NCBI GenBank assembly: GCA_963575745.1
Contig: CAUYUJ010000322.1
Coordinates: 1-64,000, forward strand
Origin: Prorocentrum cordatum
Taxonomy: Eukaryota
Direction of reading: 5' to 3'
DNA length: 64,000 nt
Each line of letters starts with the position of its first letter. Position 1 is the first letter of the stretch. Below, in pieces: positions 15,741 through 63,354 of the stretch. Made by a program: the position numbers and the translations under genes. Under the pieces are notes generated by a model, which saw only the letters and a program-made list of their open reading frames with translations, searched no databases and was not told the DNA's origin.

Positions 15741-15756
15741 GGAGCATTACAAGGCC

Positions 15757-18700
15757 ATGCTGCAGGTGCCGAACGTGAACAACACTGGTCACCTCATCGG
15801 CATGTGCCCGCTGTACATCGGCATGCGTGTGCGGCTGACCGTGAAGTTGTCGGCGAAGCACCAGATCGTCCAGGACGCCGTGGGGGAAGTCAAGGACGTG
15901 AGGTTCCACCCGCGAGAGTTCGAGACGCCGGGCGCGGATTGGCGCGAAAAGAAGACTCACGACGCCCACCGGCTCGGTTATTATCGATGCAAGCGTTTGC
16001 CTCGCGGTGTCCTCGTCAAGTTTGATGACTTCACGGAGGACCTAGGGTTCGGAGAAGGGGTCGTGCAGATCGCCCCGCACAGGGCGTCCTGGGAGTGGAA
16101 CCATCACTACTACGAAGACGATGGCGAGCGAAAGCTTCGGAAGGTGAAGGTTACGAGGTACCAGATCCCGTTGCTGCCAGAGAAAGTTCGCACCGTGCAG
16201 ACGGCGCAGGGCTTGGGCATGGATGCGGCCACCATGGTGCTCCAGAAGCCCATGAACATGGGCGCCGATGACTGGTGGCTGCACCTGTACGTCATGCTCA
16301 GTCGCGTTCGCGTGGCCCATCGCGTCCTCGTCTACAACCTGCCGCCCTGGGACATCCTGCAGCGGGGCCCGCCCCAGTACGTCCGCGAGGGGGTCCAACG
16401 CTTCGAAGGCAGGATTTTCAAAGCGAGTTACGAAATCGCCAAGCAGAGGGCGCAGGAGTACGGCTGGGACGTGGGGGATGGGCCCGCGGGACGGGGCAAC
16501 CCGGAGTCGAGCTCGGCGCCCGCGCCGCCGACGGTGCCTCGGGCGTCGCCGCCAGGCCCGCCTCGCGCCGTGGGGAGCTCAGCGGGCGTCGGTGACGAGG
16601 TGGGCGACGACGACGACGACGCCACTGGATCAGCGCCTTCGGACGGGGAGGTGGCCCCTGCGGCGTCTGTGCAGACGCCTCTGCCCTCGCACGCGCTGCG
16701 CCCGGGCCAGGCTCTGACGGTGCCACCGGCATACATTGCGCCCGACGCAGGGCCTGCGGGGCGGGGCAGGGGCCGCGGCCGCGGCGGCGACGCGACGGCG
16801 ACCGCAGATGCGGCGGCGGCACCGTCCACTGGGAGCGCTGCTTCGCGGGGGCGTGGGCGCGGGGGTGCCGGCCGCGGCGCCGGTAGGGGCACCGTCGTGC
16901 CGAGGGATCTTTGGGGGGAAATGTTTCGCACGGCGGCGACTGTTGGCGATGGTGCAGAGCCGCCAGAGCTGCGCCCGCTGGACCGGGATCTGTGCATGGC
17001 AGCTTACGGCGTGTCCCAGGAGGAGGTCACCAGGGAGCTGCAGTGGCACTGCGGCCGCGGCTCTGGCGTGGGCATCGCAAACCTCGGCAATACTTGCTTC
17101 GTGAGCTCAGTCGCGCAGGTGCTGCTGCGCCTGGCTCCCTTCCGTCGGCTTCTCCACGAGCACGGCCGGTGCCCTCTGGGTGCAGACTCTTGCGCGGCGT
17201 GCGCGCTCGGAGCTCAGGCCGCGGCTCTCTCTGTCCAGGGGGTCGACGCCGTCGCGCCACTCGCTATAGCCGCGCGCAAGGGGCTTTTTGGTGAGCGAGA
17301 ATTTGCAGAATTCGATCAGCAAGGGAGACCGAAGCAATGCGACGCGTCAGAGTTCTTCCTGGCGGCCCTCCATGCCGTTACCGCGGCCGAACACCCCGTT
17401 TGCACCGCAGGGGGGGCTCACGGGCAGCGCAGTGTGCTCCAGCAGCACATCTGCGGCATTGCGTTTCGGCAGCGGAGGCGATGCGCCGCGTGCACAGCAA
17501 GTTCGGACAAGGGGGAAATTAAGACGTTTCTCAAGGTGGTGCCTTCCGAATTGCTCGGCCCCGACTACCGGGGGCCGTGCGATCTGGAGGAGTTGATCCG
17601 GCTGGAATTAAGGCATGTCGGTGAGCCAGGGCAAGGATGTCCGGCGCACGCTCACCTCGATGATGCTCAGAGGGCGGCGGCCGGGGTCTGTCAAGGCATC
17701 AGGGTATATACAGGCAATCGCTGGGAGCGGTCGCCGCCCGTGCTCTTCGTGATCGTGCAGCGGGTGATAGGCGAGTGGTACGACAGACGCCCTGTGCGCT
17801 TTCCTCAGATTCTGCGGCCTGTGGATTCCGAGTGCGAGTACGATTTCTCGGGGGTCGTGGTGCACCAGGGCGAAAGCGCGACGAGCGGACACTACTATGC
17901 GTATGCATCCGTGGGCGTGAACGAATACGCCAAATTTGACGACAGTACTGTCCACCTCCAGACTTGGGCGCAGATCGCCAGAAACCACCAGGTGCACATG
18001 GGCGCGTATGTGTTTGCGTATGTGCGCAGGGCGGGTCCGCGGGGCGGAGGCGGCGGGCGCGCGGCGGCGGGGTCTGCGGGGGGCGCCGGCGGCAGCGCTG
18101 GTGCGGGACCGTCTGGTGCGCCGCCGGCTCCGCCGACTGCGCCTCTCGGGCATGCAGGCGGGCGCGCGGCGGGGTCTGCGGGGAGCGGCGATGGCGGCGG
18201 CGGCGCTGCTTCCAGCACGTCTGCCGCGCCGTCTGCGCCGCCGAGTGCGCCCGCCGGGCAGCAGGCGTCGGGTGGCGAGCCACCGGGCAAGCGGCGTCGG
18301 GCGGGTGGCGGGGATCCTGGCGCTGGCGACGGGGACCCCGGCGCTTCGGGGCAGCCGCAGCCGCCGTCGCGCAGGGGCAAGAAGCGCGGGCTGTCCCCGC
18401 CTGCTCTGGGCAGCACGGGCAAAGAGGACGACGACGCTGGCAGGGCCTCGGGCGTCCCGCCCGCGGACCCGGCTCCTGCCGCGGTCGAGCCAGGCGTGGG
18501 GGCGCCACCTGCCGACCGCGAGTGGCATCGCTTTACGCCGAAGACGATCGATGAAAGGAAATGTTTGGCTCGTACTTGGGGGGATGGAGTGGGCGCGCAG
18601 TGCCGCAGTTTCCCCGCGGAGGGATGCGGCGTGTTCTGCAAGAGGCACTTCGGCCAGCAAGGGGCAAAGGGGTGGCATGGGCGCGTGGACGGGGCAATCC

Positions 18701-19197
18701 CGGAGGCAAAGTTGAAGGAGTTCCAGGAGCGAGCGGCGCGCAGTGCGTCGGGCGCGGTTTCTGCGCCGGTGGTTCCAGCGGCGGGGACCCTGCCCGAGGC
18801 TTCGCCCGCGGCTGCGCCTCCAGAGGTGTTCGCCCAGGGCGGCTTCGAGGGTGCGCGAGAGGCCGCCGCGTCCGAGGGTGCTGGGGATGCTGGCGCGCAC
18901 TGTGGGGCTTCGGCCCCGTCAGTGGGCGGTGGAGGCGGGGCGACGACGAGGATTGTGGCTGGCGTTGTCGTTCGTGTGGGCGCCGGCGCTGGCACGGCGT
19001 CCACCGAACCGCCGCGCCCTCAAGCGCGCCCGCGCATCGCCACAATCGGGATTCCGGACGTGGAGGCCCACGAGAAGGAGCAGCAGGCGAGGGAGGCGGA
19101 GACCGCGCGCAGGCGACGCGAAGAGGGCGAACGGGGCCGCCTGACAGACAGGACAGGCGTAGACCTACCCCGCTCTGATCCACACAGGTTGGGATGA
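15757..19197 (+). CDS. RepHel polyprotein, C-terminal part: PIF1 C-terminus plus ubiquitin-specific protease (C19/USP) domain and Cys/His finger
   Basis: LYIGMRVRLT, VRTVQTAQGLGM and LYVMLSRVR (PIF1). GIANLGNTCF (17071), QCDASEFF, VVVHQGESATSGHYYAY and FDDSTV (USP). CLARTW..QC..FCKRH. Confidence 0.85.
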   Translation: MLQVPNVNNTGHLIGMCPLYIGMRVRLTVKLSAKHQIVQDAVGEVKDVRFHPREFETPGADWREKKTHDAHRLGYYRCKRLPRGVLVKFDDFTEDLGFGEGVVQIAPHRASWEWNHHYYEDDGERKLRKVKVTRYQIPLLPEKVRTVQTAQGLGMDAATMVLQKPMNMGADDWWLHLYVMLSRVRVAHRVLVYNLPPWDILQRGPPQYVREGVQRFEGRIFKASYEIAKQRAQEYGWDVGDGPAGRGNPESSSAPAPPTVPRASPPGPPRAVGSSAGVGDEVGDDDDDATGSAPSDGEVAPAASVQTPLPSHALRPGQALTVPPAYIAPDAGPAGRGRGRGRGGDATATADAAAAPSTGSAASRGRGRGGAGRGAGRGTVVPRDLWGEMFRTAATVGDGAEPPELRPLDRDLCMAAYGVSQEEVTRELQWHCGRGSGVGIANLGNTCFVSSVAQVLLRLAPFRRLLHEHGRCPLGADSCAACALGAQAAALSVQGVDAVAPLAIAARKGLFGEREFAEFDQQGRPKQCDASEFFLAALHAVTAAEHPVCTAGGAHGQRSVLQQHICGIAFRQRRRCAACTASSDKGEIKTFLKVVPSELLGPDYRGPCDLEELIRLELRHVGEPGQGCPAHAHLDDAQRAAAGVCQGIRVYTGNRWERSPPVLFVIVQRVIGEWYDRRPVRFPQILRPVDSECEYDFSGVVVHQGESATSGHYYAYASVGVNEYAKFDDSTVHLQTWAQIARNHQVHMGAYVFAYVRRAGPRGGGGGRAAAGSAGGAGGSAGAGPSGAPPAPPTAPLGHAGGRAAGSAGSGDGGGGAASSTSAAPSAPPSAPAGQQASGGEPPGKRRRAGGGDPGAGDGDPGASGQPQPPSRRGKKRGLSPPALGSTGKEDDDAGRASGVPPADPAPAAVEPGVGAPPADREWHRFTPKTIDERKCLARTWGDGVGAQCRSFPAEGCGVFCKRHFGQQGAKGWHGRVDGAIPEAKLKEFQERAARSASGAVSAPVVPAAGTLPEASPAAAPPEVFAQGGFEGAREAAASEGAGDAGAHCGASAPSVGGGGGATTRIVAGVVVRVGAGAGTASTEPPRPQARPRIATIGIPDVEAHEKEQQAREAETARRRREEGERGRLTDRTGVDLPRSDPHRLG

Positions 19198-21366: not shown

Positions 21367-24300
21367 GGTGGAAACACTGATGTAACTAGAGCACCGCCGA
21401 ATTCAACACACGCAAATCATACCCCACTCCGTCGAGCAATGGCATGTGGTGCCCACTCCCTGCACCATGCAACCGCCGCCTTGGAGCATGAGCTATAGTG
21501 AATCGCCCATCCACAAGTATTTGCACTGATATGCTCACACTCTTGCAGACAATTTGAATTGACCTGGCGTCACATGCAGCGACCAGGTTGGGTACTTGAC
21601 CGTCGGATATTTCCTGCACATTCCAGGTATCGATCACGGTCTCTGTCGCAGCCCGACCGCCCCGTCAATGATTCGGGCACCGTAGTGTCTGAAGAAACTG
21701 CACCGGCTTAATAGCAGGCTCAACGTGTGTCAAATTGTCACCATAGGGTTTCATTATTTTGTCGGTTTCCATTCTACAATCATTGTCTTTTGTGTAGTAT
21801 CATCAGCATGTTATTGGCGGATCCGTCTCACCCCGTCGAATGTTTCTTCATATCAGAAAATAGTGCTTCAAACCGTGCTATCCCCGCCCACGTATCACGG
21901 TTCTCCCATCCCTCCCTTGAAACCCACCCCTTAAACTCAACATAACGTATATTCCAACCAGGATCGTGCCTGTCCGTACCCGCCTTCGTGATCCACTTGC
22001 TACCGACAGCCCGTCCCGCTGCTTGCTTCTGAACTTCATTGGTGAAGTCCTGGATCGCCGGTTCTGTTTTTGATGTCCTCGAGTCCAGAAATACTTGTAA
22101 GCGTCCACTTGTAAGCGTCAGCGAAGCGAAGCGCGGAACGTCGCACGGGGACCTCTGTCAAGCCGCCTGAAACGATGCGCGAGACGCTGGAAACATCGCA
22201 GGAGACGCTTGCAGGGGCGCCGTCTACGATGCGTGGGGCCCTATGCGTGATGTTGACCACTTGGGGGAATATTTAGATGCACTAAGCAAGTGCAGTGTTA
22301 CTATGTTTCAAACTACACAGGCTGCAGTAATACCATGGGTGGGGATGGATGCTCAGACGGAACTTGAACCAGATATGCTGGGAATGCCGGGAGGAGGTCT
22401 TATGCAGGTGGACGGGAGAAGGGATGAGGCGAACTACCATGCAGAGAGGAGGGACATGCTTATGAGGTTCATGAGTACTTTGGGAATCTGTGCGGCGAAC
22501 ACATATGGAGTCCGACGTATCACACATATACCGTACTGTTCCACACATGTGCAGCGTGTGCTTGACTATATACTCATCCCTACACGTTGGTGCGCGGGAT
22601 GAGGCAAGAGCGCACCAGGAAATGAGATGCCAGGTCGAGTTTGTTGAACCTATCAAAGCTACGCCAGGTAACGTGGAAATGCCAGTGCCTATAGTGATCA
22701 CGTTCTGGTCTGGGTAAATCTCAAGACGACGGAGATCAGGCGCCCAGCTTTGCCACCCCGCCCTGTGTCCATGGTTGGCTGGCAGCCGACGGATGACACG
22801 GCGAGGAACATGTTTCGTGTGCTTGCGGATGTGTCGATTGAGGGACTTGCATCGGACACGGTAGGGACGGACCTGCAGCAGGTCGGACGGGTACTCTTGG
22901 AGACGGCAAAGCTTGTGGACCACACTAAGGGGCGCCCCAACTGCAAACCTATTCAGAGGCCCAGGGAGCTCATAGAGGTGGAGTCTGCCATCAGGCGTGG
23001 GGCCCTTGCGAATACTCCAAAAAAACTGCTGCGTAGGAGGAAGACCCTTAGGAGACAGCATAGGAGGAACCAACTCCTGCAGGACCACAGGGGATCCAGT
23101 AAGACCTCACGGTGTATCCTCAAGGAGCTGGAGTGTGAGGGTGTGCTGACAATGGACAGGACTAGGTGGAGTACGGAGATCACTAGGCATGCGACGGCGT
23201 CGTACCCTGTGTGCCTCATCAGAGCCATTGTGGAGCCCATGCTGGATAACATTGCTACCTTTGAGTTTCAGAACGTGTGCGGCGATGAGGTGAGATACAA
23301 CAAATCGGTCCGAACGGGAGGTAAGGAGGGACCCATACTTTTCAATATTGTCTTGGAGGCCATCTGGGGATCTGTGATTCAGACTTGGGATACCTTAGGA
23401 TACGGTGTCCGACTGGAAGGGGAGGGGACGGACGGTGCTCTTGTACACCACTTCTTGTGGGCGGACAATGTTACGCTCTGTGCTGCATCGCAGCTCCAGC
23501 TACAACAGATGATCGGTATGATGACGGTAACACTCAGACGGGCAGGGATGGACTGGAAGGAGGACTCTTTGGCGTATGTACTTTTTGGCCAGACGTACAC
23601 AGGTGGCGATCCGCCGCTGCTCTGCCCGCTCTCGCCAGCCATCTGTGCGATTTCTGGAGATGAGGATCTCCCAGAGCACTTGCGCTCGACTGTCGTAATG
23701 CCGAGGAAGGAGGAGGTGGAGGTACTAGGAGTGAAGCTCAGCTCGGAAATCAAGGGATATCACGGCTTGTATCATCGACTGGAGAAAGGGAGGAAGGCCT
23801 ATTTTGCTGACATCCAGTTTTATCGCTCCAGATCGGTCTCACTCAAAGAGAAGTTTCGCAGGTATGCCGCTCGTGTGCAGTCTGTGGTGTACCACGGATG
23901 TATAGGCTGGCCGTGCAATCTACGACTGCTGGAGAGGATTAAGGTCTGGGAGGGGAGGTGTCTCAACGGTATGCGAGGATTACACAAGAGGGAGGAGGAG
24001 ACGTGGGAGGAGTTCAGGGACAGGACCACACCGAAGTCATACGAGCTATTCTTGCAGGCTGGCCACTGCAGTCTCCTAGAGAAGGTGGTCCGAGCCAATT
24101 TCGAGTTTGCGTTGGAGCTGGCCCAGTTTCATGATCGGGCCTTCGCCTCCACGGACATTCGTGGGGCACGAGCCTGGCGTCAGACGCTTCAGGCCATGCT
24201 ACACTGTGCGGGGGAATGGTCACTACGGAGGGACAGACTTGTATCCATGTTCACGGGAGCCAGGAGGAGGGAAGGTACGAGGAGAGTGGGAGGGAGAGCG

Positions 24301-25170
24301 CATGCAAGCACTGACAGCTGGCATTGTCTTATGCTGGCGGCGAGTGGTAATTTACGCTGGTTTAGCATCAAGCGGAATGCAACGGACTGGTGGAATGTAG
24401 TTGCGTGCATGACAAAAATACAGCCTCGATGGGAGCCCATCTTCAGGAAACCGCCCTGTGCTCCTTGCCCTGTGGATACGTGGGACTCCCCTGAGGACTC
24501 CGACAGGCTCGCTCGTAGGATTGCCCACGGATATAACAACGAAACTGTCTGGCAGGAGGGCTCGGAGAGCTCATTGTTGGTTGAAATGACTGGTGATAGT
24601 ATGTGTGTGGTGAACTGGGCCCGAGGGATCTGGGAATGCCGTGATCGTTCGTACCGCAGGAGAGTGCACGGTCTACAAAACGATATGAATCAACTGGCGG
24701 AGGATTACGACATCAGGTGTGCCACTGTAGGGGCGGATCCGTGGAAGCATATCTACAGAGAGTTCAATTGTGTTGCGGATGAGTTGACTTGGGAGGCGAG
24801 GAGGGGAAGGACGGGAAGATGGATTGACTTCAGATATTTACGACAACAGAGACATTGTATCAAACGTATCCGTGGAGGATGGGACGGTGGCGTGAGTGTT
24901 GAAGGCTCTGCTCTAGGTTGCTATGTGGAGGTCTCATTTGGGGACAACCACTGGCGACGAGTCTTCCAGGAGGCTTCTTTACTCCCTCTGGGGGCCACTG
25001 TTACAGATAGCGAGCTCACAGCTTGTGAACGCCTGCTCCAAGGTGTTCGGCAGATTATCTCTGAGATCCTCGGGCCTCCAACCCCAAAGAGGTTGAGAGG
25101 GCGTGAGGGGCCCTAGGGACTCTGCGCGGCTAGGGCGCACGCGCCCTGTGTAGCCGACCCCAACACCCCA
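21367..25170 (+). mobile_element. Non-LTR retrotransposon copy 1 (degenerate; 5' part inverted at 21367-~22093; internal RT deletion)
   Basis: Minus-strand TGA-CGG..IDTWNVQ. Plus strand MDAQTELE, AANTYG, LDYILI, SDH (APE); VRTGGKEGP, FLWADN (RT); GDS..HIYREFN.AD..WDGG (RNase H). Tail GACCCCAACACCCCA|ACCAAG. Confidence 0.8.
22243..25116 (+). pseudogene. Disrupted ORF2 (APE-RT-RNase H) of LINE copy 1
   Basis: Collinear with the intact ORF2 at 30429-34604, but frameshifted near 22600-22750 and lacking the segment with KAPGPD..DILQAFD. Confidence 0.8.
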
Positions 25171-25177
25171 ACCAAGT

Positions 25178-25502
25178 TCCCGGAGAGCTCGCTGAGAGCT
25201 AGAGGGTTTAAGATAAGAAGCCGGTCGTTGGTGGTGCCCGCCAGCAGCCCATCTTCGCCGGTCCAGAATCCCCGCAGCGGTTCGTTCGAGCCGGCAGCTG
25301 GTCCGGGGGAGCTTCCAGCAAGCTTCCACGCGAGCCTACACGCGTGCAGGCACGCATGGAAGCGCTTCTGGCAGTGCTTCCGCAGCGCTGCAGGCGAGCT
25401 TTCCAGAGAGCCAGAAGAGCTTTGCGAGAGCGTTGCACGGCTCGCCCGGAAAGCTTTCTGGTGTGTTTGCCCTATGCTCTTCGGGTTTTGGACGCTACCA
25501 AG
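25178..25502 (+). mobile_element. Short (~325 bp) non-autonomous element, family C
   Basis: Starts TCCCGGAGAGC and ends GCTCTTCGGGTTTTGGACGCTACCAAG. Homologous copies at 54649-54974 (-) and ~56239-56528 (+). Confidence 0.75.
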
Positions 25503-28500
25503 TTTGAGCTGTAGTATTTTTTCCCGTGATATTCGATCTTATTCCCGCTCGCCATCTTGATCTCAGCTCGATCGGGTGAATATTACTATCGAAAAGCACT
25601 GTGGCGGGATCGGCCGTTTTGAGTCATCTTGATACGCGCTGGCGGTTTTCTGAACATAACTCCAGCTTTAGGACAGCTACAGAGCTGGTAAGCGCAGCTA
25701 ATCGATGTAGAATAATTCAGCGCGTCCGCCTGAATCCAGAGGTCTGAACTCGGTCTGTTAGCCGAGCTAGGTCCGCAAACCTATTCGTATTATTCGAGTC
25801 ATCTTGACAGGAACTCTCGGTTTTCTGTACTTAACTCGAGCTCTAGGACAGCTACAGAGCTGACATTTACAGAAACCGATTCAGAATCATCAGTTGCGTT
25901 TGCCTGTCGAATCCAGAGCTCTGAACTCGGTCTGCTGCCCGATCTAGAATCGCGAAACTATTCGTTTTAGTCGAGTCATCTTGAGAAGTGCTCTCGGTTT
26001 TCTTCACTCAACTCGCGCTGAGGGGGGCTACTGTGCTGGTGGTCACAGGAATCGATTTGAAGACATCAGGCGCGTCCGCCTGTCGAATCCAGAGCTCGGA
26101 ACTCGGTCTGCTGCCCGAATTAGGTCTGCGAAACTGCTGTATTGTTCGAGTCATCTTGAGAGGTGCTGTCGGTTTTCTGCATTAACTCGGGCTGTAGGGG
26201 GGCTGCAGGCTGGTAATGACAGGAGTCGATTCGCAGACATCAGACGCGTCCGGCTGTCGCATTCAGAGGTCAACAAATATTCACTATGAGTCGGAATGTT
26301 GGTAGGTGCTGTCGGTTTTCTCAACTTCGGCAAGAAAAATCTCGACGGACCTTTTGCTGACTTTTGGTCGGTTGAAAATTTTGTTCTCGAGATTTTAACA
26401 TTCGTTAGAGCTCATTTTTTCCCACCATTTTGATCTTATTACCTCGTAGAGCTCTTCGGCATCGATGAGCTAGAGGAATTCCGGCGCAGGGTGGAGCTAG
26501 TCGGCCGACCCGGCCTTAAGAGACAAAGTGGTGACTTTGGGTCGATTTTGCTAAGATTCGAAAGATATTTGACAATTCATTTTGAGAAACCAGATTTTTC
26601 TCACGTGTAGTGGGTTATGACGCGTCTGCCAGTAAAATTTTCAGGTCCGTAGCTGCAATATTACTATCGAAAGATTTGCAGGAACCGATTTTCGATGAAA
26701 ACCGAAAAATCGTGATTTTTCGAATTTTTCTGCTCTCGCTTGAGAAGCTTCCTTCATGTTCCGAGAAGCGCTGCAACGAAAGAGCTCTACGAGGTGCCCG
26801 GCGGTAACCTGGTTGACGGTTTACCGCCGGTTCCCATCCCGCTCGCCATCTTGATCTCAGCTCGATCGGGTAGATATTATTGCAAAAAAGCATCGCGGCG
26901 GGATCGGCTGTTTCGAGTCATCTTGATACGCGTTGTCGGTATTTTGTACTTACCTCGAGCTGTAGGGCAGCCACAGAGGTGATTATCACAGAAATCGATT
27001 GCGAATCATCAGGCGCGTTCGTCTGTTCCATCCAGAGGTCTGAACTCGGTCTGCTGCCCGAGCTATCGTTTTGTTGGAGTCATCTTGAGAGGTGCTGATA
27101 GTTTTCTGCACTGAACTCGGGCTGTATGGAGGCTTCAGTGCTGGTAATTAGAGGAATCTGGAGAGATCAGACGCGTCCGCCTGTCGAATCCAGAGCTCGG
27201 AACTCGGTCTGCTGCCCGAACTAGGTCCGCGAAACTATTCGTATTGTTCGAGTCATCTTGAGGGGTGCTGTCGGTTTTCTGCACTCAACTCGAGCTCTAA
27301 GGGGGCTGCATGGCTGGTAATCACTGGAATCGATTTAGAGACATCAGTCGCGTCCACTTGTCGCATTTAGAGCACTGAACTTGGCCTGCTGCCCGAGCTA
27401 GATCCGTAACACTATTCGTATTGTTCGAGTCATCTTCAGAGGTGCTGTCGATTCTCTGCATTTAACTCGGGCTGTAAGGGGGCTGCAAGGCTGGTAATCA
27501 CATGAATCGATTCGGGAGACATCATGCGCGTCTGCCTGTTGCATTCAGATGTACGAACTCGGTCTGATACTCGAGCTAGATTCGCGAACCTATTTCTATT
27601 GTTCGAGTGATCTTGAGAGGTGCTGTCGATTTTCGCGCGTAACTCGCGCTTTAGGAGAGCTACGGAGCTCGTGCGCACAGAAACGATCCAGAAGCATGAG
27701 GGGCGTTTGGCTGTTGCATCGAGGGATGTGAAATCGTTTAGGCTCAAAAATTATTCGTTCTCTGCATTTTTTTCGACGTTATATATGCTCAGGAAGCTCT
27801 ACGAGTCCCCCGGCGGTAAGGAAGGTTGACGGTTTACCGCCGGCGCCCAGTGACTCGTAGAGCTTCCCTAAGCTAACAGCTGGAAGCTTAAGAGTAATTC
27901 GGACGCACTGGCGGGCTAGTTGGCTCGAAAAATCTCGACGGAACTTTTGGTGACTTTTGCTCAGTTAAAAAATATGTTCTCAAAATTTGAACATTCGTTA
28001 GAGCTCTAGTATTTTTTCCCGTGATATTCGATCTTATTCCCGCTCGCCATCTCGATCTCAGCTCGATCGGGTGAATTTTACTATCTAAACGCACTGTGGC
28101 GGGATCGGCCGTTTCGAGTCATCTTGATACGCGCTGACGGTTTTCTGATCATAACTCGAGCTTTAGGGCACTACAGAGCTGGTAAGCACAGCTAATCGAT
28201 GTAGAATGATTAGGCGCGTTCGCCTGTTGAATCTAGAGGTCTGATCTCGGTCTGTTAGCCGAGCTAGGTCCTCAAACCTATTCGTATTATTCGAGTCATA
28301 TTGACAGGAACTTTCAGTTTTCTGTACTTAACTCGAGCTGTAGGACAGCTACAGAGCTGATATTTACAGAAACCGATTCAGAATCATCAGTTGCGTTTGT
28401 CTGTCGAATCCAGAGCTCTGAACTCGGTCTGCTGCCCGATCTAGAATCGCAAAACTATTCGTATTGGTCGAGTCATCTTGAGAAGTGCTCTCGGTTTTCT

Positions 28501-28875
28501 TGACTCAACGCGCGCTGAGGGGGGCTACAGTGCTGGTGGTCACAGGAATCGATTTGAAGACATCAGGCGCGCCCGCCTGTCGAATCCAGAGCTCGGAACT
28601 CGGTCTGCTGCCCGAATTAGGTCTGCGAAACTACTGTGTTGTTCGAGTCATCCTGAGAGGTGCTGTCGGTTTTCTGCACTTAATTCGGGCTGTAGGGGGG
28701 CTGCAGGGCTGGTAATGACAGGAGCCGATTCGCAGACATCAGACGCGTTCGCCTGTCGCATTCAGAGGTCAAAAAATATTCACTATGAGTCGGAATGTTG
28801 GTAGGTGCTGTCGGTTTTCTCAACTTAAGTCGAGCTAGGAAGCTCTACGAGTCCCCCGGCGGTAAGGAAGGTTGA
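25503..28875 (+). repeat. Stack of family A elements (178-bp units) with a nested family B element
   Basis: Same unit sequence as 1-1133. An A 3' end at 27850 is followed directly by an A 5' end TGACTCGTAGAGCTTCC at 27851. Confidence 0.85.
26440..26836 (+). mobile_element. Full-length ~400-bp non-autonomous element, family B
   Basis: 5' TACCTCGTAGAGCTC and 3' GAGCTCTACGAGGT plus stem-loop. Cleanly interrupts the A consensus GATCTTAT|TCCCGCTCGCC with no TSD. Confidence 0.8.
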
Positions 28876-29381
28876 GGAAGCGGAGTTTACCTCCCGCTCT
28901 CCCTCGGCCTTGTCCCGTCGGGGGGCTCACTCGAGCTGCATCGTGCAGTCAGGCAGCCTGCCCCTGGCCCGCCGCGCGGGGGGCGCGTGGCGATTGGGCC
29001 ACTTCGGCGACGCCTGCACTTGTTTGCGGCATTGTTTGCACTTGTTTGCGAGCAGGCCGCCTGCACTTCTTTGCGGCATTTTGCCGCGTCGAGCTGGACG
29101 GGACGAGCCAGAGTCAATCGATCGATTTGGACCGCTGGGGAGCCAACTTCGGACATTGGGAGTGGGAGTATCTTGCCAGACAGGTTGGTAGAGCTCGACA
29201 CGACGATAAGGATTCTCTAGTCGACATACCATCTGGGCCACCTGATCTCTCTCCCACTTTACCTCACCATCCTGTTGCCCCATATAACTTTCATCAGTTG
29301 AGTGCACATCTCAAACGTACTCGAGAAGATCGATCGTTCTGTGCGAAGTGGAATATCCCTTGTAATATCTCAGACGGCAAG

Positions 29382-30428
29382 ATGGCTGCCTCATCAGCTG
29401 CTGCGGTCCCCGAGGTTTTCGCTATGGACGCCACGGATATGCCCGTTCCAGGAGCCAAGGAGGAGGAGGTCCCAGAGGGAAAACGGGTCAAAATTCAGAC
29501 GGTTGAAGGCCTCGAGGAGGCCATGACAAAGGGGATGGACAAGATCACGACGCTTGTTGCATCTCTGGGAGGTAAGATGACGGAGGGCTTCCAATCAACA
29601 CATCGAAGCATCACGGATCTCGGCACCCAGCTCAATGCTCGTGTTGATTCGGTGGAGAAAAATGTACAGCAGGCGATGACGGACATAGATGCTATTACTA
29701 AGAAGGTTGAGGATCAGAGGCTCCAGATAATCCAGCTCCAGCAGGCTCCTGCAGGTGGGGCCCCCAGAGCAGGCACCTCTACGACAGCGTCCTCGGCGGA
29801 AACTCGGCAGTCAGTGCAGAATTTCACCCCATCGTTCGTCGAGCTCAAGGGATGGGTGACGGACTGGAGGGATGCAGAGAAGCGTCAGGAGGAGATGTTA
29901 TCACAGCAGGCGTTGAATTCACTGCTGAATGAGGTCCTGGCTGGAGAATGGTTCAGTGGTGTGAAGGAGTTTCTGGACCTGAACCAATCCAAGAGGTTCA
30001 ACACAGGTAGAGAGGCGTGGGGGTATTCGCGTGCTCGGCTCTATTTCCAGAATGGGGTTACCAGTGACCAGCTGTGGGATCTTCGTCGTCGACTCGTTGC
30101 CGCGATCGCCGACAACAAACTCCAGCACGCTCCCAGGGCCCTCAAGGTCCACGTGGAGGCCCCCCCCTGGAAGAAGCCCCATCTGGATGCCGCTGGGATC
30201 TTTCAGGCCAAGTTCAAGAGTTTCAAGAAGCATCATTCGAATCTCAGGGCTGAGACGGGACCACCGATTACGTTCATGTGGGGCTCCAGTGACCACTTAC
30301 CACCTCCAGGGAAGATTGTGGCCAAGTTCTCTCTGCAGAATGGCTGGGAGATCACTCGTGCAATGAATCAGCTTGAGCCAGGGATCAACATTGATGAGTT
30401 GCGAGCGAGGATTTCCAGTACGAACTAG
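29382..30428 (+). CDS. LINE ORF1 (coiled coil plus globular domain)
   Basis: First ATG of the 28872 frame. Heptad-like LNARVDSVEKNVQQAMTDIDAITKKVEDQ. FTPSFVELKGW aligns with HVPTWIQISGF of copy 4. Lies upstream of ORF2. Confidence 0.75.
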   Translation: MAASSAAAVPEVFAMDATDMPVPGAKEEEVPEGKRVKIQTVEGLEEAMTKGMDKITTLVASLGGKMTEGFQSTHRSITDLGTQLNARVDSVEKNVQQAMTDIDAITKKVEDQRLQIIQLQQAPAGGAPRAGTSTTASSAETRQSVQNFTPSFVELKGWVTDWRDAEKRQEEMLSQQALNSLLNEVLAGEWFSGVKEFLDLNQSKRFNTGREAWGYSRARLYFQNGVTSDQLWDLRRRLVAAIADNKLQHAPRALKVHVEAPPWKKPHLDAAGIFQAKFKSFKKHHSNLRAETGPPITFMWGSSDHLPPPGKIVAKFSLQNGWEITRAMNQLEPGINIDELRARISSTN

Positions 30429-33400
30429 AGGTGCCACGACACCATTGCGTCATGGAATGTGCGTCGGGCAGGTGCAGAGAACGGCCATGACATAATTAAT
30501 TCACTACGTCGTTTAGATGTGGGACTCGCGGGGTTGTGCGAGTGTCAGTTCCTTTCAGTTCGTGATCTCAGCATGCGAGGTTACACAATTTTTCGGAGTA
30601 CTTGTCGGAAGGCTGCGGTGATTATGTCTAAGTCTTGGAGAGACTCGCTCAGAGCCACATATCGTGGCAAAGGTTTTGTCATTTGTAGTTATTCTAGTGT
30701 TACGGTTATTGTTGCATATATGCCACATGAGAGTATCAATGCCCTTACGGAAGAACAGTATGAGCATGATGTGTATGAACAGATATTGTTTGATATATCC
30801 CAAGTGCTTCGCACACATAGGTCTAAGTTCCCGAAGCAGCCGCAGGACCTGGTCTTCTTGACAGATGCTAACGTCGAACTCGAGCCAGATTCGGAGGTCA
30901 ACGGCTTTAGAGTTACTGGATCAGGGCTTCTGGAGGCGTCTGGGATTGCTGGGGAGTCTACGGAGATTGATACTGGGATGGAGGAGGGAGCGGATGACGG
31001 CAACCCGTATATGACTCAAACAAAACGTGGTGCACGCAAAGCCAGACCTCATAGGCTTGTCTCGGGCTTCGAAATTCGACGGGCGTCTAGGTTGCAATCG
31101 ATGAGGAGGGCCCTACTGGACTTCTGCGGGCTCTGGGGCATCAGGATGGAGAACACATTCGGGCAGAGGAGGGTTACTTTCAAATCAGGTACGGGGGTGG
31201 AGAAGGTGCTCGACTATGTTGGTGTCAGCCGTCGTTTACACAGGCAGGAGCTCACCGTTGGCTGGATGCTGCCTTCGGAAGTCGGCCACGCCTGGACGGA
31301 GCACCCTTGCAGCAGATACGAGCGTGCGCTGTCTGACCACGCCTGCATAGTTGTTCGCTTGTCTTGTGCACCGTCTGCGAAGAGACGGACCCAGCCTGCT
31401 CGAAAATTCATCCACTTGCAACCGGTGTCACAGCTGGAGTTTGCGAAGAACATGGACGATCGGGGCAGTCGTTACCGTGCTCTGTGCCAGGAAAATGCTG
31501 ACCCAGAGGATCGACAGGAGATGTTGGATACGCTGGGACCTGACCTCATAAAGGCCGCCGAGGAGACCCCCCAGAAAGATATCAATCCCAGGAATAATGT
31601 GCCAAAGAAATCCGAGATCCACTGGGCCGCCCAGGCAAGTAAACGTGAAGCTCTTCGTCGGGGGGATAGAGAGGAGGCTAAACGGTGCTCAAAGATTGTG
31701 AGGAGAGAAAGAAGGAGGCTAGAGGCAAGAGTACAGAGGTGGAGGACGGAAATGAACACGAGGAGGAGGAGGAGGGCCAAGACGGAGACGTTGATCCTTG
31801 CCAACGGGATGGAGTCTCAGAACCGCGAGGAGTGGGGGGACGAGATATTGGGGCACATGAAGTCTAAGGTGGAGGACCCCGAGGCCAGAGAGGTGACCCT
31901 GCGTGAGCTTCAGTCGCTGCGTGGTCTATGTTCGGGAAGCGGATCCTCAGAGGTGTTCTCGATGTCGCTCCTGCTGCGGGCGAGGGCGAAGCTGTCCACG
32001 GGAAAGGCCCCAGGTCCCGACAACGTGACTGTCACGATGTTGAAACAGCTCTCGTGGGCATCTGTGCGACGTGTTCTGGTGAGCTTCCAAGGTGTGTATT
32101 CCAGAAGGTTATGTTGTCCCGACAGTTGGCGTCAACTAGCTGCCACACTCATGCCAAAAGAAATGGACATACAACATTTGACAGATACACGTATGCTATG
32201 TCTACAGTCGTGTCTTATGAAATGGTACATGACATGTATTGTGATGTTGATTGAGAAGAGGATTGAGGAGCACCGACACTATGTATGCCTGTACGGATTC
32301 AGATCGGGACGCAAAACATCGGAAATCACCAGCGTTGCCAAGAGGCTCAGCCAGCACTCCGCTGTCTGGGGCAAAGGAGACAGTTTGTGGCTTGCCAATC
32401 TTGATATCTTACAAGCTTTCGATAATGTTACTCCGTGCCTCGCCATGCGCTGTCTTCGTGCTCTTGACATACCTGCTGATCTCATTGTGGCGTTGATTGA
32501 ACCCATGATGGATAATCAGTGCGTGGCCAGCTTCGAGGGCATCGAGGCATCGTCAGCGGTCTATTGGGACAAATCTATTCGAACGGGAGGAGTAGAGGGA
32601 CCTATGATTTTTCTGGCAGTTTCTATTGTACTCTGGAGAGATGTTATCGACAGATGGAGGCAAGAAACGCAGTACGGCATCAAATTGGAAAATGATGAGC
32701 GCATGTTCAATGGTGAGCGTATGACCCACAGTTTCTGGGCAGATAATCTTTTGTTGTATGCGAAGACCCGCACTGACCTTGAGTTGATGGTGCGTGACAT
32801 GAGTATCCCCCTGATGAATGCAGGAATGACCTGGAAGCCGAAATCTTTGATGTATATTTACTTTGGTGCGCCGCCTGGCATCCCGCCGTCCCCTGAGCAG
32901 GATATCCGTGTGCTGGTGCCGTCTAGTGACGCCGCTCTTGGGACCCGAGAAGTGGTCCTACCGCGTGTTCAAGCGTTTGAGATCCTGGGAGCCACTCTGG
33001 AGGAGACCTGGAAGGACCACTCGGACTCAGAGGCCATGCTCCAGAAAGCCCAGAGGATGTTCTTTGGGGAAATCGCGTATTACCGCTGTTCTGGGATTGA
33101 CTTGGCTGAAAGATTTACTCGCTATCAAGCTAAAGTGATTGCTGCATTATTATTCAACTGTGAGGGCAGAACGCCCGACTATTCTACCATTGCTGCTGTT
33201 CACTATTTTGAAGGCAGATGTCTAGCTATAATGTCAGGTATACGCAAGCGGAGAACTGAAGGCTGGTCTGAGTTTCAACGTAGGCGATACAAAGCGGGAC
33301 GACAGAGTTTTGCTGGACTTGGATTCCGAAGTGCGGTGCAGATATGGATATTTCGTTGTTGGGATTGGGCTAAGGATGTCTCAGTTGCTGCAAGTATTCG

Positions 33401-34604
33401 TATGAGGAGATACACAACACACACAGAGGAGGAGGAGGGAGAGACGGTACCAAATCGGCGTCAGAGGAAAACTCGGGCGATGGCGGCGGCGGCGACTTCT
33501 CAAACATATCATGTATCTCAGATATCCCAGATGTCGAGTGGCTGTCGCCGGCGTACACCAGATGATCAGCCTGCCATACCTGAGGAGTCGGACATGTCAC
33601 GTGAATGGATGATATCTAGGCTGGCCATGTTACATGGAAGGGGGAAGTGGACGGAACATCGTGACACATGTATTCTAGCAATGCCTGTAAAAGATAGGAA
33701 GCAGCTGACACGCATGAACATAGGCGGCCGCCCCCGTGGACATACTGCGTGGGACTGGTGCTTGTGCGATCTCTTTGGTTGTGAGTGGTACCTCTCATTC
33801 GACAGTTCCGCTGGGTCCCGTGAGAAATACTGCAAGCATTTGCTGACTGTGATTGGTATGCAACACTTGTTCGACTTGTTTGTTCTACCCAGGCCGCCTG
33901 GTGTGAGACATGTGAAGGCAGAGGAGGAGGAGGAGAGTGAGATGAATGAGAGGATGAGCAAACGTATTGCCGCAAATTTTGAGAATGAAACGGAGTGGAG
34001 GTGTGAGAATATTGAGCGTCTTGGGATGGAGATCTTGGGAGATAGTAAGACTGTTGTAAACTGGATGTGTGGTGAGTGGCAGATTCGCAACAAGCAGTAT
34101 GTACGACTGGTGGGAACACTACAAAATACGGTATCGATGCTGTCTGGATGGGGACTGACCTCACCTGCATCGGGACAGAATCTGTATAAGCATTTCTTTC
34201 GTGAGGGTAATGAGCGTGCGGATAAATTGTCGTGGGAGGCCAGAGGTGGCCAAACTATTACTCGCTGGTTTGCATATGATAAGTTCCTCAGTACTCGTAA
34301 GACTGCTCTCCGTGGTGCATTCGATGGGGGTGTCAGTAATGAAGGATGTGGAGGTGGGTGGTGGCTTCAGATTGGCGTTGTAGGTAGGGGTTCCAGCGTG
34401 CAGGTTGATTTTCCCATCTCCTCCTCCTCCTCCTCCTCCTCTTCCTCCTGCACCAGCTCGCACAGCTTCCATTGGCACGATGTGGCCGAGGAGGCGATGA
34501 GCTTGCCTCCTGGTAGCACGGTAACCTGCTGTGAACTAGCTGCCTGCGCTGCCCTGACGAGAGCTGCTGCTAAGGTGGCGTGCGCTCTGCTACGACCTAC
34601 CTAA
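30429..34604 (+). CDS. LINE ORF2: APE endonuclease - reverse transcriptase - circularly permuted RNase H
   Basis: IASWNV, LCE, VAYMPH, TDANV, LDYV, SDH (APE). KAPGPDNV, YGFRSGR, LDILQAFD, IRTGGVEGP, FWADN (RT). GDSKTVVNW, HFFREGNERAD, AFDGG, TVTCCELAA (RNase H). No ATG before WNV. Confidence 0.93.
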   Translation, partial: RCHDTIASWNVRRAGAENGHDIINSLRRLDVGLAGLCECQFLSVRDLSMRGYTIFRSTCRKAAVIMSKSWRDSLRATYRGKGFVICSYSSVTVIVAYMPHESINALTEEQYEHDVYEQILFDISQVLRTHRSKFPKQPQDLVFLTDANVELEPDSEVNGFRVTGSGLLEASGIAGESTEIDTGMEEGADDGNPYMTQTKRGARKARPHRLVSGFEIRRASRLQSMRRALLDFCGLWGIRMENTFGQRRVTFKSGTGVEKVLDYVGVSRRLHRQELTVGWMLPSEVGHAWTEHPCSRYERALSDHACIVVRLSCAPSAKRRTQPARKFIHLQPVSQLEFAKNMDDRGSRYRALCQENADPEDRQEMLDTLGPDLIKAAEETPQKDINPRNNVPKKSEIHWAAQASKREALRRGDREEAKRCSKIVRRERRRLEARVQRWRTEMNTRRRRRAKTETLILANGMESQNREEWGDEILGHMKSKVEDPEAREVTLRELQSLRGLCSGSGSSEVFSMSLLLRARAKLSTGKAPGPDNVTVTMLKQLSWASVRRVLVSFQGVYSRRLCCPDSWRQLAATLMPKEMDIQHLTDTRMLCLQSCLMKWYMTCIVMLIEKRIEEHRHYVCLYGFRSGRKTSEITSVAKRLSQHSAVWGKGDSLWLANLDILQAFDNVTPCLAMRCLRALDIPADLIVALIEPMMDNQCVASFEGIEASSAVYWDKSIRTGGVEGPMIFLAVSIVLWRDVIDRWRQETQYGIKLENDERMFNGERMTHSFWADNLLLYAKTRTDLELMVRDMSIPLMNAGMTWKPKSLMYIYFGAPPGIPPSPEQDIRVLVPSSDAALGTREVVLPRVQAFEILGATLEETWKDHSDSEAMLQKAQRMFFGEIAYYRCSGIDLAERFTRYQAKVIAALLFNCEGRTPDYSTIAAVHYFEGRCLAIMSGIRKRRTEGWSEFQRRRYKAGRQSFAGLGFRSAVQIWIFRCWDWAKDVSVAASIRMRRYTTHTEEEEGETVPNRRQRKTRAMAAAATSQTYHVSQISQMSSGCRRRTPDDQPAIPEESDMSREWMISRLAMLHGRGKWTEHRDTCILAMPVKDRKQLTRMNIGGRPRGHTAWDWCLCDLFGCEWYLSFDSSAGSREKYCKHLLTVIGMQHLFDLFVLPRPPGVRHVKAEEEEESEMNERMSKRIAANFENETEWRCENIERLGMEILGDSKTVVNWMCGEWQIRNKQYVRLVGTLQNTVSMLSGWGLTSPASGQNLYKHFFREGNERADKLSWEARGGQTITRWFAYDKFLSTRKTALRGAFDGGVSNEGCGGGWWLQIGVVGRGSSVQVDFPISSSSSSSSSSCTSSHSFHWHDVAEEAMSLPPGSTVTCCELAACAALTRAAAKVACALLRPT

Positions 34605-37058
34605 GATGGTGGGGGCTCAGTTGCACTGCTCCGCCGATTCGGATTCGGATTCTAGTGGCGGACCGCAAACCGCAAAAAAAACCAAGGTTGACGGTTTACC
34701 GCCGGCGCCCAGTTCCGGGGCGCTGGAGACCTAGTTGGCAAGACAAATCTCGACGGACCTTTTGGTGACTTTGGTCTGTTTGTTCTCGAAATTCAACCAT
34801 TCGTTAGAGCTCTAGTTTTTTTTTTCACGTGGTATTCGATCTTATTCCCGCTCGCCATCTTGATCTCAGCTCGATCGGGTACCTTTCACTGCCAAAAAGC
34901 GTCCAGGCGGGATCGGCCGTTTCGAGTCATCTTGATACGCGCTTTCGGTTTTCTCAAGACAACTCGAGCTTCAGGACAGCCACAGAGCTGATAAGCACAT
35001 CTAATCGATTCAGAATGTTCAGGCGCGTTTGCTTGTTGAATCGAGAGGTATGAACTCGGTCTACTAGCCGAGCTAGGTCCGCAAACCTATTTGTATTATT
35101 CGAGTCATCTTGACTGACGCTCTCAGTTTTCTGTACTTGACTTGAGCTACAGGACAGCTACAGAGCTGATACGTACAGAATCGGATTCAGAATCATCTGT
35201 TGCCGTTGTTTGTTGAATCCAGAGCTCTGAACTCGGTCTGCTGCCCGATCTAGAATCGCGAAACTATTCGTATTGTTCGAGTCATCTTGAGAGGTGCTGT
35301 CGGTTTCCTGCACTTAACTCGGGCTGTAGGGGGGCTGCAGGACTGGTAATCACAGGGATCGATTCAGAGACATCAGGCGCATCCGCCTTTCGAATCGAGA
35401 GCCGAAATCTGTCTGCTGCCCGAACTAGGTTCGCGAAACTATTCGTATTGTTCGAGTCATCCTGAGAGGTGCTGTCGGTTTCCTGCACTTAACTCGGGCT
35501 GTAGGGGGGCTGCAGGACTGGTAATCACAGGGATCGATTCAGAGACATCAGACGCGTCCGCCTGTCGCATGCAGAGGTCTGAACTCGGTCTGATACTCGA
35601 GCTATTCGTACTGTTCGAGTCATCTTGAGAGGTGCTGTCGATTTACGCACGTCACTCGGGCTGTAGGAGAGCTACAGAGCTCGTACAGAAGACAATCCAG
35701 AAGCATCGGGGGCGGTCGGCTGTTGCATCCGAGAGGTCTGAAATTGCTTGGGCTGAAAAACTATTTTTTCTGTGTTATTTTTTTCGACATTATATGTTGT
35801 CAGGAAGCTCTATGAGTCCCCCGGCGGTAACCAAGGTTGACGGTTTACCGCCGGCGCCCAGTTATTGCTGGGAGCTTAAGAGTAATTCGGGGGCGCCGGA
35901 GAGCTAGTTGGCAAGAAAAATCTCGACGGACCTTTTGGTGACTTTTGGTCGGTTGAAAATTTTGCTCTCGAAATTCAACCATTCGTTAGAGCTCTAGTAT
36001 TTTTTCCCGTGCTATTCGATCTTATTCCCGCTCGCCATCTTGATCTCAGCTCGATCGGCTACCTTTCACTGCCAAAAAGCGTCCAGGCGGTATCGGTCAT
36101 TTCGAGTCATCTTGATACGCGGTGACGGTTTTCTCAAGATCACTCGAGCTTTAGGACAGCTACAGAGCTGGTAAGCACAGCTAATCGATTCAGAATGATC
36201 AGGCGCGTTCGCCTGTTGAACCCAGAGGTCTGAACTCGGTCTGCTAGCCGAGCTAGGTCCGCAAACCTATTCGTATTATTCGAGTCATCTTGACAGACGC
36301 TCTCGGTTTTCTGTACTTAACTCGAGCTACAGGACAGCTATAGAGCTGATGCGTACAGAATCTGATTCAGAATCATCAGTGGCCGTTATCTGTTGAATCC
36401 AGAGCTCTGAACTCGGTCTGCTGCCCGCTCTAGAATCGCGAAACTATTCGTATTGTTCGAGTCATCTTGAGAGATGCTGTCGGTTCTCTGCACTTAACTC
36501 GGGCTGTAGGGGGGCTGCATGGCTGGTAATCACTGGAATCGATTCGGAGACATCAGGCGCGTCCACCTTTCGAATCCAGAGCTCCGAGCTCTGTCTGCTG
36601 CCCGAACTAGGTTCGCGAAACTATCCGTATTGTTCGAGTCATCCTGAGAGGTGCTGTCGGTTTCCTGCACTTAACTCGGGCTGTAGGGGGGGCTGCAGGG
36701 CTGGTAATCACAGGAATCGACTCAGAGATATCAGACGCGTCCGCCTGTCGCATGCAGAGGTCTGAACTCGGTCTGATACTCGAGCTAGGTTTGCCAAACT
36801 ATTCGTATTGTTCGAGTCATCTTGAGAGGTGCTGTCGATTTACGCACGTAACTCGGGCTGTAGGAGAGCTACAGAGCTCGTACAGAAGACAATCCAGAAG
36901 CATCGGGGGCGTTCGGCTGTTGCATCCGAGAGGTCTGAAATTGCTTGGGCTGAAAAATTAGTTTTCCCGTGTAATTTTTCTCGAAATTATATGTTCTCAG
37001 GAAGCTCTACGAGTCCCCCGGCGGTAAGACAGGTTGACGGTTTACCGCCGGCGCCCAG

Positions 37059-50064: not shown

Positions 50065-51559
50065 TTGTTCTTGCGTGCCCCTTCCTTGTGCGGCATCATG
50101 ACAGCGCAATTTTGTTCGATGAGTTCTGTTTCGACCAGTTGGAAAAGAAAAACAATGATAATCAAACTGGCGATTTGTAGACAAGCTGTATTTGATGTTA
50201 TGCAGTTTAATGCTCGTGATCCATATTTTGTGGCTGATCCGAATACTTTCCCCGCGTTTGGCTGGTTTGATAGCCTCGATGATTGTGCGCGAAACCCATG
50301 CCCGTTTCAGGGGAACTCGGAGGAGCAGGTCAGTATATTGTCGAGTTCCTTATCGGTGCCAACTGCTGGGCCAACTGATCGTGGAGAAGCTTTCTCGTCT
50401 CAATCGGTTGCGTATTCTCCAGATGTGGTGCAGTCTCCAGATGGTGGGCTGCAGTCGAGACTGGGCTCTGTTTCTTTTGATCCTGGTGTTCAGAATGAGG
50501 GGGCGTTTGAGGACAAGGAGGGGATGAAGGATACGGAGGTTGCCAAAGTTGCTGCGAATCCGTATTGTGCAGAGATCCATACGGCCGCTTCAGGATCCCA
50601 GGATGTAGGACCCAACCTTGCTGCCGAAGAAGCGTCGCTTGCTTCTCAATCAAATGATGCTGTACTGCACTCAGTTCCTTTGGATTATTCTCTGCACTCA
50701 GCTCCTTTGGATTATTCTCTGCACTCAGTTCCTCTGGAGTATTCTCGAGTGCAAAGGGAAGGTGGAGGGAGGCCCCGAGGCGCTGCCGTTGGCACCCTCG
50801 AAAACCCACGGAGAGTGCGAAGTCGACCAGCGTAAAGATAACTGTGCTTCTTCTTCCCGGCTCTGTTCAGATGAGTTGCAGAGCAATCGATCTGAGTGTC
50901 AAGCTGCCAGGGACTGGGCCCGTGCCAATGACGACGCAGTTGCTCTTTGGCGGGAATTCGAACGGCTCCCGAAAGAGGAGTTTTATGCTCGGATCGAGGC
51001 GCTCAAGGCATACAAACTTCGAATGGGAATTGAGAGTCCCGAGGAGGCGCCGAGTCCTGAGGAGGATGCTGGCCGCGGGAAAGGCCAGAGGCACCGCAGA
51101 AACAGGAGGCGGGCAAGGGCGAAGGCTCAGGCAGTTCTAACTGGCTCTTCTATGTCAAAGTCGGCCCATCCATCTACTTGCGATCCTCCCCAACCTCCGT
51201 CCTCTTTTCACGATTCAGTTTCTTCCGCTATACCCGCCCCAAGTGTGCCCTTGTTGCCCGAAGGCGACAAGGGGGCGGAGGTGGATGAGTTGCATAACAA
51301 TCAATCAGAGTGCGATGAGGACGCTGATTCGGATGCGGCCTTCCACGCATGGGATAAAATGGCCACCCAGCGAGTGAGGGCAAATTTCTATTTGAAGAAG
51401 GCTGCTCTGCACCGTTTGTGTGAGGCTTTGCACCGTGATGGGGGGGAGGACGCGGACATCCAGAGAAACTGTGGGCTGTGTCGGTTGGACAAGATAAGGA
51501 TGCACCGTATTGCAGGGTGGTGCTTCGGACATTTGCGAGCAGCTCTCTTATTTACATAA
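50065..51559 (+). pseudogene. Frameshifted hypothetical protein of E2 with SECQAARDW domain
   Basis: Overlapping ORFs 50065-50835 and 50618-51559. 3x 27-bp repeat at ~50665-50745. The start codon is uncertain. Confidence 0.45.
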
Positions 51560-63340: not shown

Positions 63341-63354
63341 GAAAACGGGGATCA

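Follow-up and report, generated by a model that had tools for sequence, protein, structure and literature searches.

Ribonuclease H (RNase H) is among the best-studied protein folds and has served as a model for protein folding, and whether long interspersed nuclear elements (LINEs) carry it serves as a criterion in their classification and in reconstructions of their modular evolution. In plant L1 elements the domain was reportedly first described in PNAS in 2013. According to the accessible text of PMC5348765, the archaeal-type RNase H (aRNH) of plant Ta11-type and oomycete L1 elements lies at the very end of the second open reading frame (ORF2) of LINEs with an apurinic/apyrimidinic endonuclease (APE)-type endonuclease, and belongs to a subgroup with an Arg in addition to the DEDD residues; Arg, not His, at this active-site position is what marks the subgroup. 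Here, we describe a LINE in a 64,000-nt stretch of eukaryotic, repeat-rich DNA from Prorocentrum cordatum (contig CAUYUJ010000322.1, positions 1 to 64,000; the whole stretch is referred to as the window), whose ORF2 also ends in a domain of this kind. Whereas the described aRNH domains have the canonical order and a CCHC motif upstream (again as far as the accessible text of PMC5348765 goes), the two halves of the domain are swapped in the window family. No CCHC motif was noticed upstream of the permuted domain, for which no dedicated search was made; this region is helical in the predicted model.

Two further groups of proteins should be compared. First, the cellular archaeal-type RNases HI (Halobacterium NRC-1 4e19, Sulfolobus tokodaii 2ehg and 3aly, LC11 3u3g and 4h8k, and the N-domain of Rv2228c, 3hst) have catalytic residues and motifs in common with the window domain and show local structural likeness to it at 20–27% identity. 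They run beta1–3, alphaA, beta4...alphaE, whereas each half of the window domain aligns to their opposite end. Second, a 2026 paper (PMC13552848) describes a natural circular permutation between ribonuclease H-like domains, the proteins not being named in its accessible text, and its authors state there that they found no earlier circularly permuted ribonucleases other than T2/BECR. That pair is also a natural permutation within the RNase H-like fold, but the accessible text contains no link to retrotransposons ('retrotranspos' occurs 0 times); the pair may overlap with the LINE family of the window. Full-text literature searching turned up no account of a retrotransposon with a permuted RNase H, and the accessible text of PMC5348765 does not mention permutation ('permut' is absent).

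An earlier, sequence-only reading of the window had claimed that the four RNase H motifs stand in swapped order in ORF2, and this was borne out. All four lie in the same ORF2 frame: GMEILGDS at 34023–34046 (the G of GDS at 34038) and HFFREGNERAD at 34191–34223 come first, followed by LRGAFDGG at 34308–34331, STVTCCELAA at 34515–34544 and the stop codon at 34602. Because beta4...alphaE precede beta1–3 and alphaA, the domain is to be classified as a circular permutant and not as a canonical member of the RNase H family. On the basis of the evidence given below, the last ~200 residues of ORF2 most likely constitute one archaeal-type (type 1, RVT_3-like) RNase H that is circularly permuted. Its parts, together with the helix that precedes it, are as follows:

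33912–33983, + strand: conserved helix just upstream of beta4 (helix 78–101 of the model), with KR..........W conserved.
34020–34244, + strand: half A, corresponding to the C-terminal half of RNase H, beta4-alphaB-alphaD-beta5-alphaE (beta4 34020–34040; alphaB 34047–34067; alphaD 34092–34148; beta5 34185–34193; alphaE 34212–34244); key residues Asp1205 (34041–34043), Arg1258 (34200–34202) and Asp1265 (34221–34223).
34245–34301, + strand: linker between the original termini, alphaE (C-terminal) and beta1 (N-terminal), with a short predicted strand, ITRW (34257–34268).
34302–34592, + strand: half B, corresponding to the N-terminal half of RNase H, beta1-beta2-beta3-alphaA (beta1 34302–34334; beta2 34347–34382; beta3 34467–34505; alphaA 34521–34592); key residues Asp1299 (34323–34325) and Glu1369 (34533–34535).
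34383–34466, + strand: Ser-rich low-complexity insertion in the beta2–beta3 hairpin (predicted local distance difference test score, pLDDT, 54–58), differing in length among relatives.

For the sequence comparisons, three profiles were used, built from 147 sequences of the family (A1), 38 half-B sequences (A2) and seven full-length proteins (A3). Profile A1 matched the six solved archaeal-type RNase HI sequences listed above in the PDB, with E-values from 2.1e-10 to 6.4e-7, which agrees with the 'archaeal/plant-L1-like' affinity assigned by the sequence-only reading, as does the conserved Arg of the subgroup. The match to 4e19_A consisted of swapped stretches: profile positions 143–214 aligned on chain residues 63–128 (16.4 bits, independent E-value (i-E) 0.042) and profile positions 55–129 on chain residues 134–197 (27.9 bits, i-E 1.3e-5). 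In hhalign comparisons with a reference of six canonical bacterial RVT_3-type RNases H, half A aligned to template columns 117–191, that is, the C-half (97.1%, P 7e-11), and half B to columns 55–124, the N-half (47%, P 1.9e-4, score 26.4), where FDGG fell on DG and AEL on AE. The controls for half B scored far lower: the reversed profile reached 10.3, and 30 column shuffles had a median of 8.1, none exceeding 12.3. In its native order, the domain gave two separate matches in swapped order (best score 63.7), whereas the re-ordered profile (B then A) gave one match of 135 columns (98.0%, P 2.6e-13, score 81.0), just as had been predicted from the sequence. The region upstream of GDS had a probability of 0.1% against the canonical RNase H profile.

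Searches that require collinearity recognized the domain less readily. The window protein scored 13.3–15.8 bits against Pfam RVT_3 (PF13456), below the cut-off of 21.6 and over profile positions 63–119 only, which is expected when a collinear model faces a permuted domain. Among the 147 relatives, 42 matched RVT_3 at E <= 0.01 (best 4.6e-7). A phmmer search with ORF2 against the PDB found nothing. Two word-indexed searches were also made: the homologue search with ORF2 residues 1150–1391 gave no match among 1263 candidates of 765–2435 aa, and that with the 147-sequence family profile returned 12 close relatives only, canonical RNases H being absent. In a protein language-model look-up, which can serve as a lead only, the RVT_3/RNase_H clusters were nearest (0.92).

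The swapped order is not confined to one copy. When hidden Markov models (HMMs) of halves A and B were run on all six frames of the window, three matches to half A (33921–34274, 24487–24825 and 59888–60220) and three to half B (34302–34592, 24862–25074 and 60261–60497) were found, always A then B, and there was no extra half B upstream or half A downstream. Thus, two other copies, designated copies 1 and 3, share the order of the copy described above (copy 2), as the sequence-only reading had noticed, and the same order was obtained by tblastn of ORF2, which located copy 1 at 24166–25077 (99/337 identical) and copy 3 at 59852–60250 (46/135) and 60249–60449 (25/86) in two frames. The protein identity of both to copy 2 is only about 30%.

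24487–25074, + strand: copy 1, halves A and B in one frame of the ORF at 22672–25116; all four acidic residues kept.
59888–60497, + strand: copy 3, half A then half B in different frames; GGS replaces GDS.

The retention of all four acidic residues in copies 1 and 2, which had likewise been claimed, was confirmed. Copy 3 is decayed, as indicated by the frameshift between its halves and by GGS in place of GDS. Elsewhere in the window, a short half-B remnant was observed at 51631–51684 (E 4e-4), matching the start of half B, in a region with ORFs at 50609–51559 and 51439–52002. Judged from its sequence, it is probably a relic of a fourth, decayed copy of the element; the ORF at 50609–51556 had no Pfam match.

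When the 232-aa domain was searched exhaustively with HMMER against 1.84 billion representative proteins, 166 matched at E <= 1e-3 and 48 of these also at E <= 1e-10; the best 150 of the 166 matches were all collinear with the half order of the query. Half order was also scored by HMMs built from the family on 184 stored proteins, some of which are near-duplicates. Of the 180 that scored, 144 had A then B, 31 had A only and 5 had B only, the single-half relatives being mostly fragments; B-A, B-A-B or A-B-A could be found in none of the 180. In all five full-length relatives (1279–1491 aa), the reverse transcriptase (RT) was in the middle of the protein and the permuted domain at the very end. 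One further relative (P0088, 1628 aa) contained nine tandem repeats, with a period of 113 residues, of a 38-residue piece matching the H..RE.N..AD part of half A; it is either an odd repeat protein or an assembly artefact.

The majority of relatives were metagenome proteins, and the named ones were records labelled Pyramimonas (a prasinophyte alga). The closest database protein was a JGI 'hypothetical protein' with 100% identity over 249 aa. An MMETSP record named 'Transcript' (P0003) was 98% identical, with half A running into half B, and EukProt entries labelled Pyramimonas sp. were 76–93% identical, one of which (P0004) also ran half A into half B; both collections were, we presume, built from transcriptomes. 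At the nucleotide level, near-identical sequence to 33681–34760 was present in at least 20 public runs of 14 studies, including marine and freshwater metagenomes and polyA metatranscriptomes, so the element or its host appears to be widespread; the best-matching DNA run may be the source sample itself. Contigs from RNA libraries of other studies were collinear with the DNA and showed no joints, and one of them spanned 34180–34330, including the A-to-B junction, without any difference (it should be noted that such libraries can contain DNA).

These data bear on the idea that the apparent order is a chance resemblance of motifs or an artefact of assembly or annotation, such as a mis-join or a splice that would restore the canonical order. 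The motifs are indeed short, and the Pfam scores of the window protein stay below threshold. Against this, three diverged copies share the order with 144 database proteins, which come from many separate assemblies and include transcript-labelled records; in other runs, the contigs of DNA and of RNA libraries are likewise collinear and without joints; and the profile statistics lie far beyond those of the shuffled controls. We therefore regard chance or artefact as extremely improbable. As far as can be judged from the sequences, the permuted RNase H is natural and is conserved across a diverged LINE family.

The structure of the last 307 residues was predicted by AlphaFold2 with the 147-sequence alignment, giving a mean pLDDT of 84.6, ten-residue blocks of 94–98 over both halves and a predicted template modelling score (pTM) of 0.72. 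Upstream of half A, the model contained helices only (26–66 and the long helix 78–101). Half A consisted of a strand ending at GDS (114–120), helices 123–129 and 138–156, a strand 169–171 and a helix with RAD (178–188); the linker formed a short strand (193–196); and half B consisted of strands 208–218 (FDGG), 223–234 and 263–275 and a final helix with the Glu of EL (281–304). There was no beta1–3 unit upstream of GDS in the model, and with the profile probability given above this agrees with the sequence-only reading, in which no canonical N-terminal half precedes GDS; its expectation of a foldable domain likewise matched the confident prediction over both halves. A pTM of 0.72 over 307 residues, of which about 50 are disordered, would not be attainable without a confident placement of the two halves with respect to one another in the model.

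Covariation among 82 sequences, which was not controlled for phylogeny, pointed in the same direction. The ten strongest pairs were all above every column-shuffled maximum, and pairs connecting the two halves made up 4 of the top 10 and 17 of the top 40, among them a cluster between alphaE 184–188 and the end of beta1 (217–219) and the pair of alphaD 143 with alphaA 290. Pairs to be expected within the halves were recovered as well, for example, beta4 117 with beta5 170 and beta2 225 with beta3 273. On the basis of the model, its pTM and the covariation, halves A and B would pack into a single body. A different arrangement, in which the paired halves come from two ORF2 proteins, A from one and B from the other, to give a domain-swapped dimer, would be allowed because half B follows a linker of ~20 residues and forms the free C-terminal end. 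Yet in the monomer model the domain is closed in cis, with high confidence, and no sign of dimerization was seen; we consider assembly in trans very unlikely.

Structure searches with sequential aligners recovered RNases H one half at a time, which is how a permutant should behave. No PDB entry was matched by Foldseek at E <= 1e-3; its highest-ranked rows were unrelated lipoproteins with root-mean-square deviations (rmsd) of 10–13, and S. tokodaii RNase HI appeared at rank 27 (73 columns, rmsd 2.2, 26% identity). VIA-align, run on 48,161 chains and on the Foldseek top 1000, found the half-matches to RNases H at Z 3.2–3.8, for example, model residues 111–196 on 2ehg chain residues 65–149 (27% identity) and model residues 197–304 on residues 338–415 of the cauliflower mosaic virus RT. 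Half-matches to RNase H were the only rows with more than 20% identity.

The four acidic residues aligned on the canonical RNase H residues and were kept in 95–98% of relatives: the Asp after beta4 (D1205) in 114 of 120, the Asp in alphaE (D1265) in 132 of 136, the Asp in beta1 (D1299) in 126 of 129 and the Glu in alphaA (E1369) in 103 of 108. In the seven full-length proteins (A3) they were invariant, together with R1258, E1259 and N1261, and invariance of the acidic residues was also observed in the half-B set (A2). R1258, the R of H..RE.N..AD, was conserved in at least 90% of the family and aligned on the R of the canonical 'ipR..n..AD'. Such conservation suggests that the permuted RNase H is probably catalytically active.

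It also bears on the possibility that the domain is a relic of a tandem (dual) RNase H, in which half A would be what is left of one dead domain and half B what is left of a second, without a common active site, and the region would serve only as a structural or nucleic-acid-binding tail. Dual RNases H with one degraded copy are described for retroviruses and for Tat and Archon long terminal repeat (LTR) elements in the accessible parts of PMC4408406, PMC10508981 and PMC5348765; these comprise two tandem domains, one of them decaying, and could be a starting point for the present arrangement. In addition, half B alone is hardly detectable by sequence. The window family, in contrast to the dual type, has a single A and a single B in the order A-B, with the catalytic residues spread over both; vestiges of the missing halves were not seen. 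Four catalytic residues, two per half, that persist in 95–98% of relatives are not what a dead relic would show, and the model is confident over both halves and covarying pairs link them. A dual relic thus appears very improbable, and one permuted domain remains our preferred interpretation.

The domain is part of an element with a recognizable LINE organization. A single reading frame (28866–34604) holds two ORFs, which are split by one TAG at 30426–30428:

29382–30428, + strand: ORF1, first Met to TAG; coiled-coil-like.
30429–34604, + strand: ORF2, 1391 aa; putative endonuclease start, RT, helical region and permuted RNase H.
30450–30467, + strand: putative APE-like endonuclease start SWNVRR, at the N-terminus of ORF2.
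32163–32840, + strand: RT core, Pfam RVT_1 (ORF2 aa 579–804; 45.6 bits, cut-off 29.6).
34602–34680, + strand: stop codon TAA (34602–34604), short 3' untranslated region and A-run (34672–34680).

No family match was found for ORF1 in a Pfam-type domain search. RVT_1 was matched at E <= 0.01 by all five full-length relatives and copy 1, three of these six exceeding 29.6 bits, and the best match of profile A3 was human L1 ORF2p (8uw3_A, E 8.9e-17), R2 proteins matching less well (E 2.4e-9 and weaker). On the basis of the RVT_1 domain and of L1 ORF2p as best profile match, the element was classified as an APE/RT-type non-LTR (LINE) retrotransposon. Endonuclease signals were weak (Exo_endo_phos at E 0.001 in relative P0155; i-E 10 on the endonuclease stretch of L1 ORF2p), and SWNV and GLQE motifs were visible in the family alignment. 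The ORF1 stop TAG and ORF2 are in the same frame, and the first Met of ORF2 is residue 48, with none ahead of the endonuclease motifs; this would imply that ORF2 is produced by stop-codon readthrough or re-initiation. The 3' end of copy 2 is probably at about 34680, after the A-run, since the depth of DNA-run contigs jumps there (climbing to 400–2000 at 34653–34724), loose ends occur at 34676 and 34680, and satellite repeats start at this point.

The RT of the family has a peculiarity of its own. Its motif C is FWADN at 32733–32747 (ORF2 aa 769–773), and (W/Y)ADN instead of the (F/Y)ADD of LINEs was observed in all 16 aligned rows (about 10 distinct sequences); copies 1 and 3 of the window have it as well. 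A771, D772 and N773 were invariant in the seven full-length proteins and aligned on the FADD of human L1 ORF2p. The second catalytic Asp of the RT is substituted throughout the family, whose elements in other respects appear active. A literature search for a YADN RT motif returned nothing relevant.

Several results weigh against a permuted RNase H, and most of them concern half B and the packing of the two halves. The N-half stretch stayed below 5 bits in the other three printed alignments of profile A1, with the same register, and a PDB search with profile A2 up to E <= 10 gave no RNase H. Only one of the 38 half-B sequences touched RVT_3 in Pfam (E 0.045), none of the three half-Bs of the window matched any RNase H family, whereas two of the three half-As matched RVT_3 weakly, and the hhalign probability of half B was only 47%. 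AlphaFold2 with a single sequence (the 232-aa domain) failed (pLDDT 39.3). The packing of the halves is predicted from the alignment-based model and from covariation uncorrected for phylogeny. No whole-domain structural match was obtained, the best VIA-align Z values on the two sets (5.2 and 4.1) belonging to unrelated folds. Finally, ADN stands in the place of the FADD motif in the RT of the family, so these elements may be enzymologically unusual in general.

With a circularly permuted RNase H as the preferred interpretation, the chain would have been cut in the former alphaA–beta4 loop and the old termini bridged by the linker of ~20 residues, which would make the Glu-bearing helix the last element of the protein. 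Both halves would then pack into the usual five-stranded sheet, with a putative active site formed by Asp1299 (beta1), Glu1369 (alphaA), Asp1205 (end of beta4) and Asp1265 (alphaE), and Arg1258 nearby. During retrotransposition, the endonuclease would nick the target and the RT would copy the element RNA (target-primed reverse transcription). In the RNA:DNA hybrid that the element's own RT produces, the RNA would be cut by the C-terminal domain; once freed of RNA, the first complementary DNA (cDNA) strand would become available for synthesis of the second strand, as in other LINEs that carry RNase H. The permutation itself might also be a functional design rather than a neutral accident, in which the beta1–3/alphaA module, tethered at the extreme C-terminus and bearing two of the four catalytic residues, docks in cis after cDNA synthesis or in trans between two ORF2 proteins, a proposal that we consider unlikely. 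If it were true, RNase H would be active only on docking and would act as a timer sparing the RNA template until reverse transcription is complete.

As for the origin of the permutation, the textbook explanation of circular permutants is that a domain was duplicated in tandem and the two outer halves were then lost. The sequence-only reading had suggested tandem duplication and trimming; this part of it received no direct support, as no intermediate form of a duplication was present among the 180 relatives. The conserved helix just upstream of beta4, in which R1179, A1181 and W1190 were invariant in the seven full-length proteins, showed no RNase H similarity. This helix was tried as a candidate relic of alphaA and rejected for lack of support (P 0.62).

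The surroundings of the LINE copies were rich in other repeats. Satellite families of 177–178 nt, tandem and dispersed, were observed around the copies (200–1043, 25462–28589 and 34765–55745), and a tandem array of 102 nt at 63353–63963. A block of very long open frames with a GC content of about 70% occupied approximately 2941–19197 on the + strand; the domains in it comprised Helitron_like_N, PIF1 helicase, DUF6570, a helicase-associated domain and ubiquitin C-terminal hydrolase (UCH). This domain content suggests a large element of the Helitron type in which a UCH has been captured or fused.

As a natural permutant that extends across a family, the domain would indicate that the RNase H fold tolerates a cut in the alphaA–beta4 loop in evolution and not only by design. 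It would also mean that RNase H is under-called wherever HMMs or structure searches assume collinearity, and that such elements would be annotated as lacking the domain. Together with the ADN motif of the RT, the permuted RNase H would mark a diverged lineage of LINEs.

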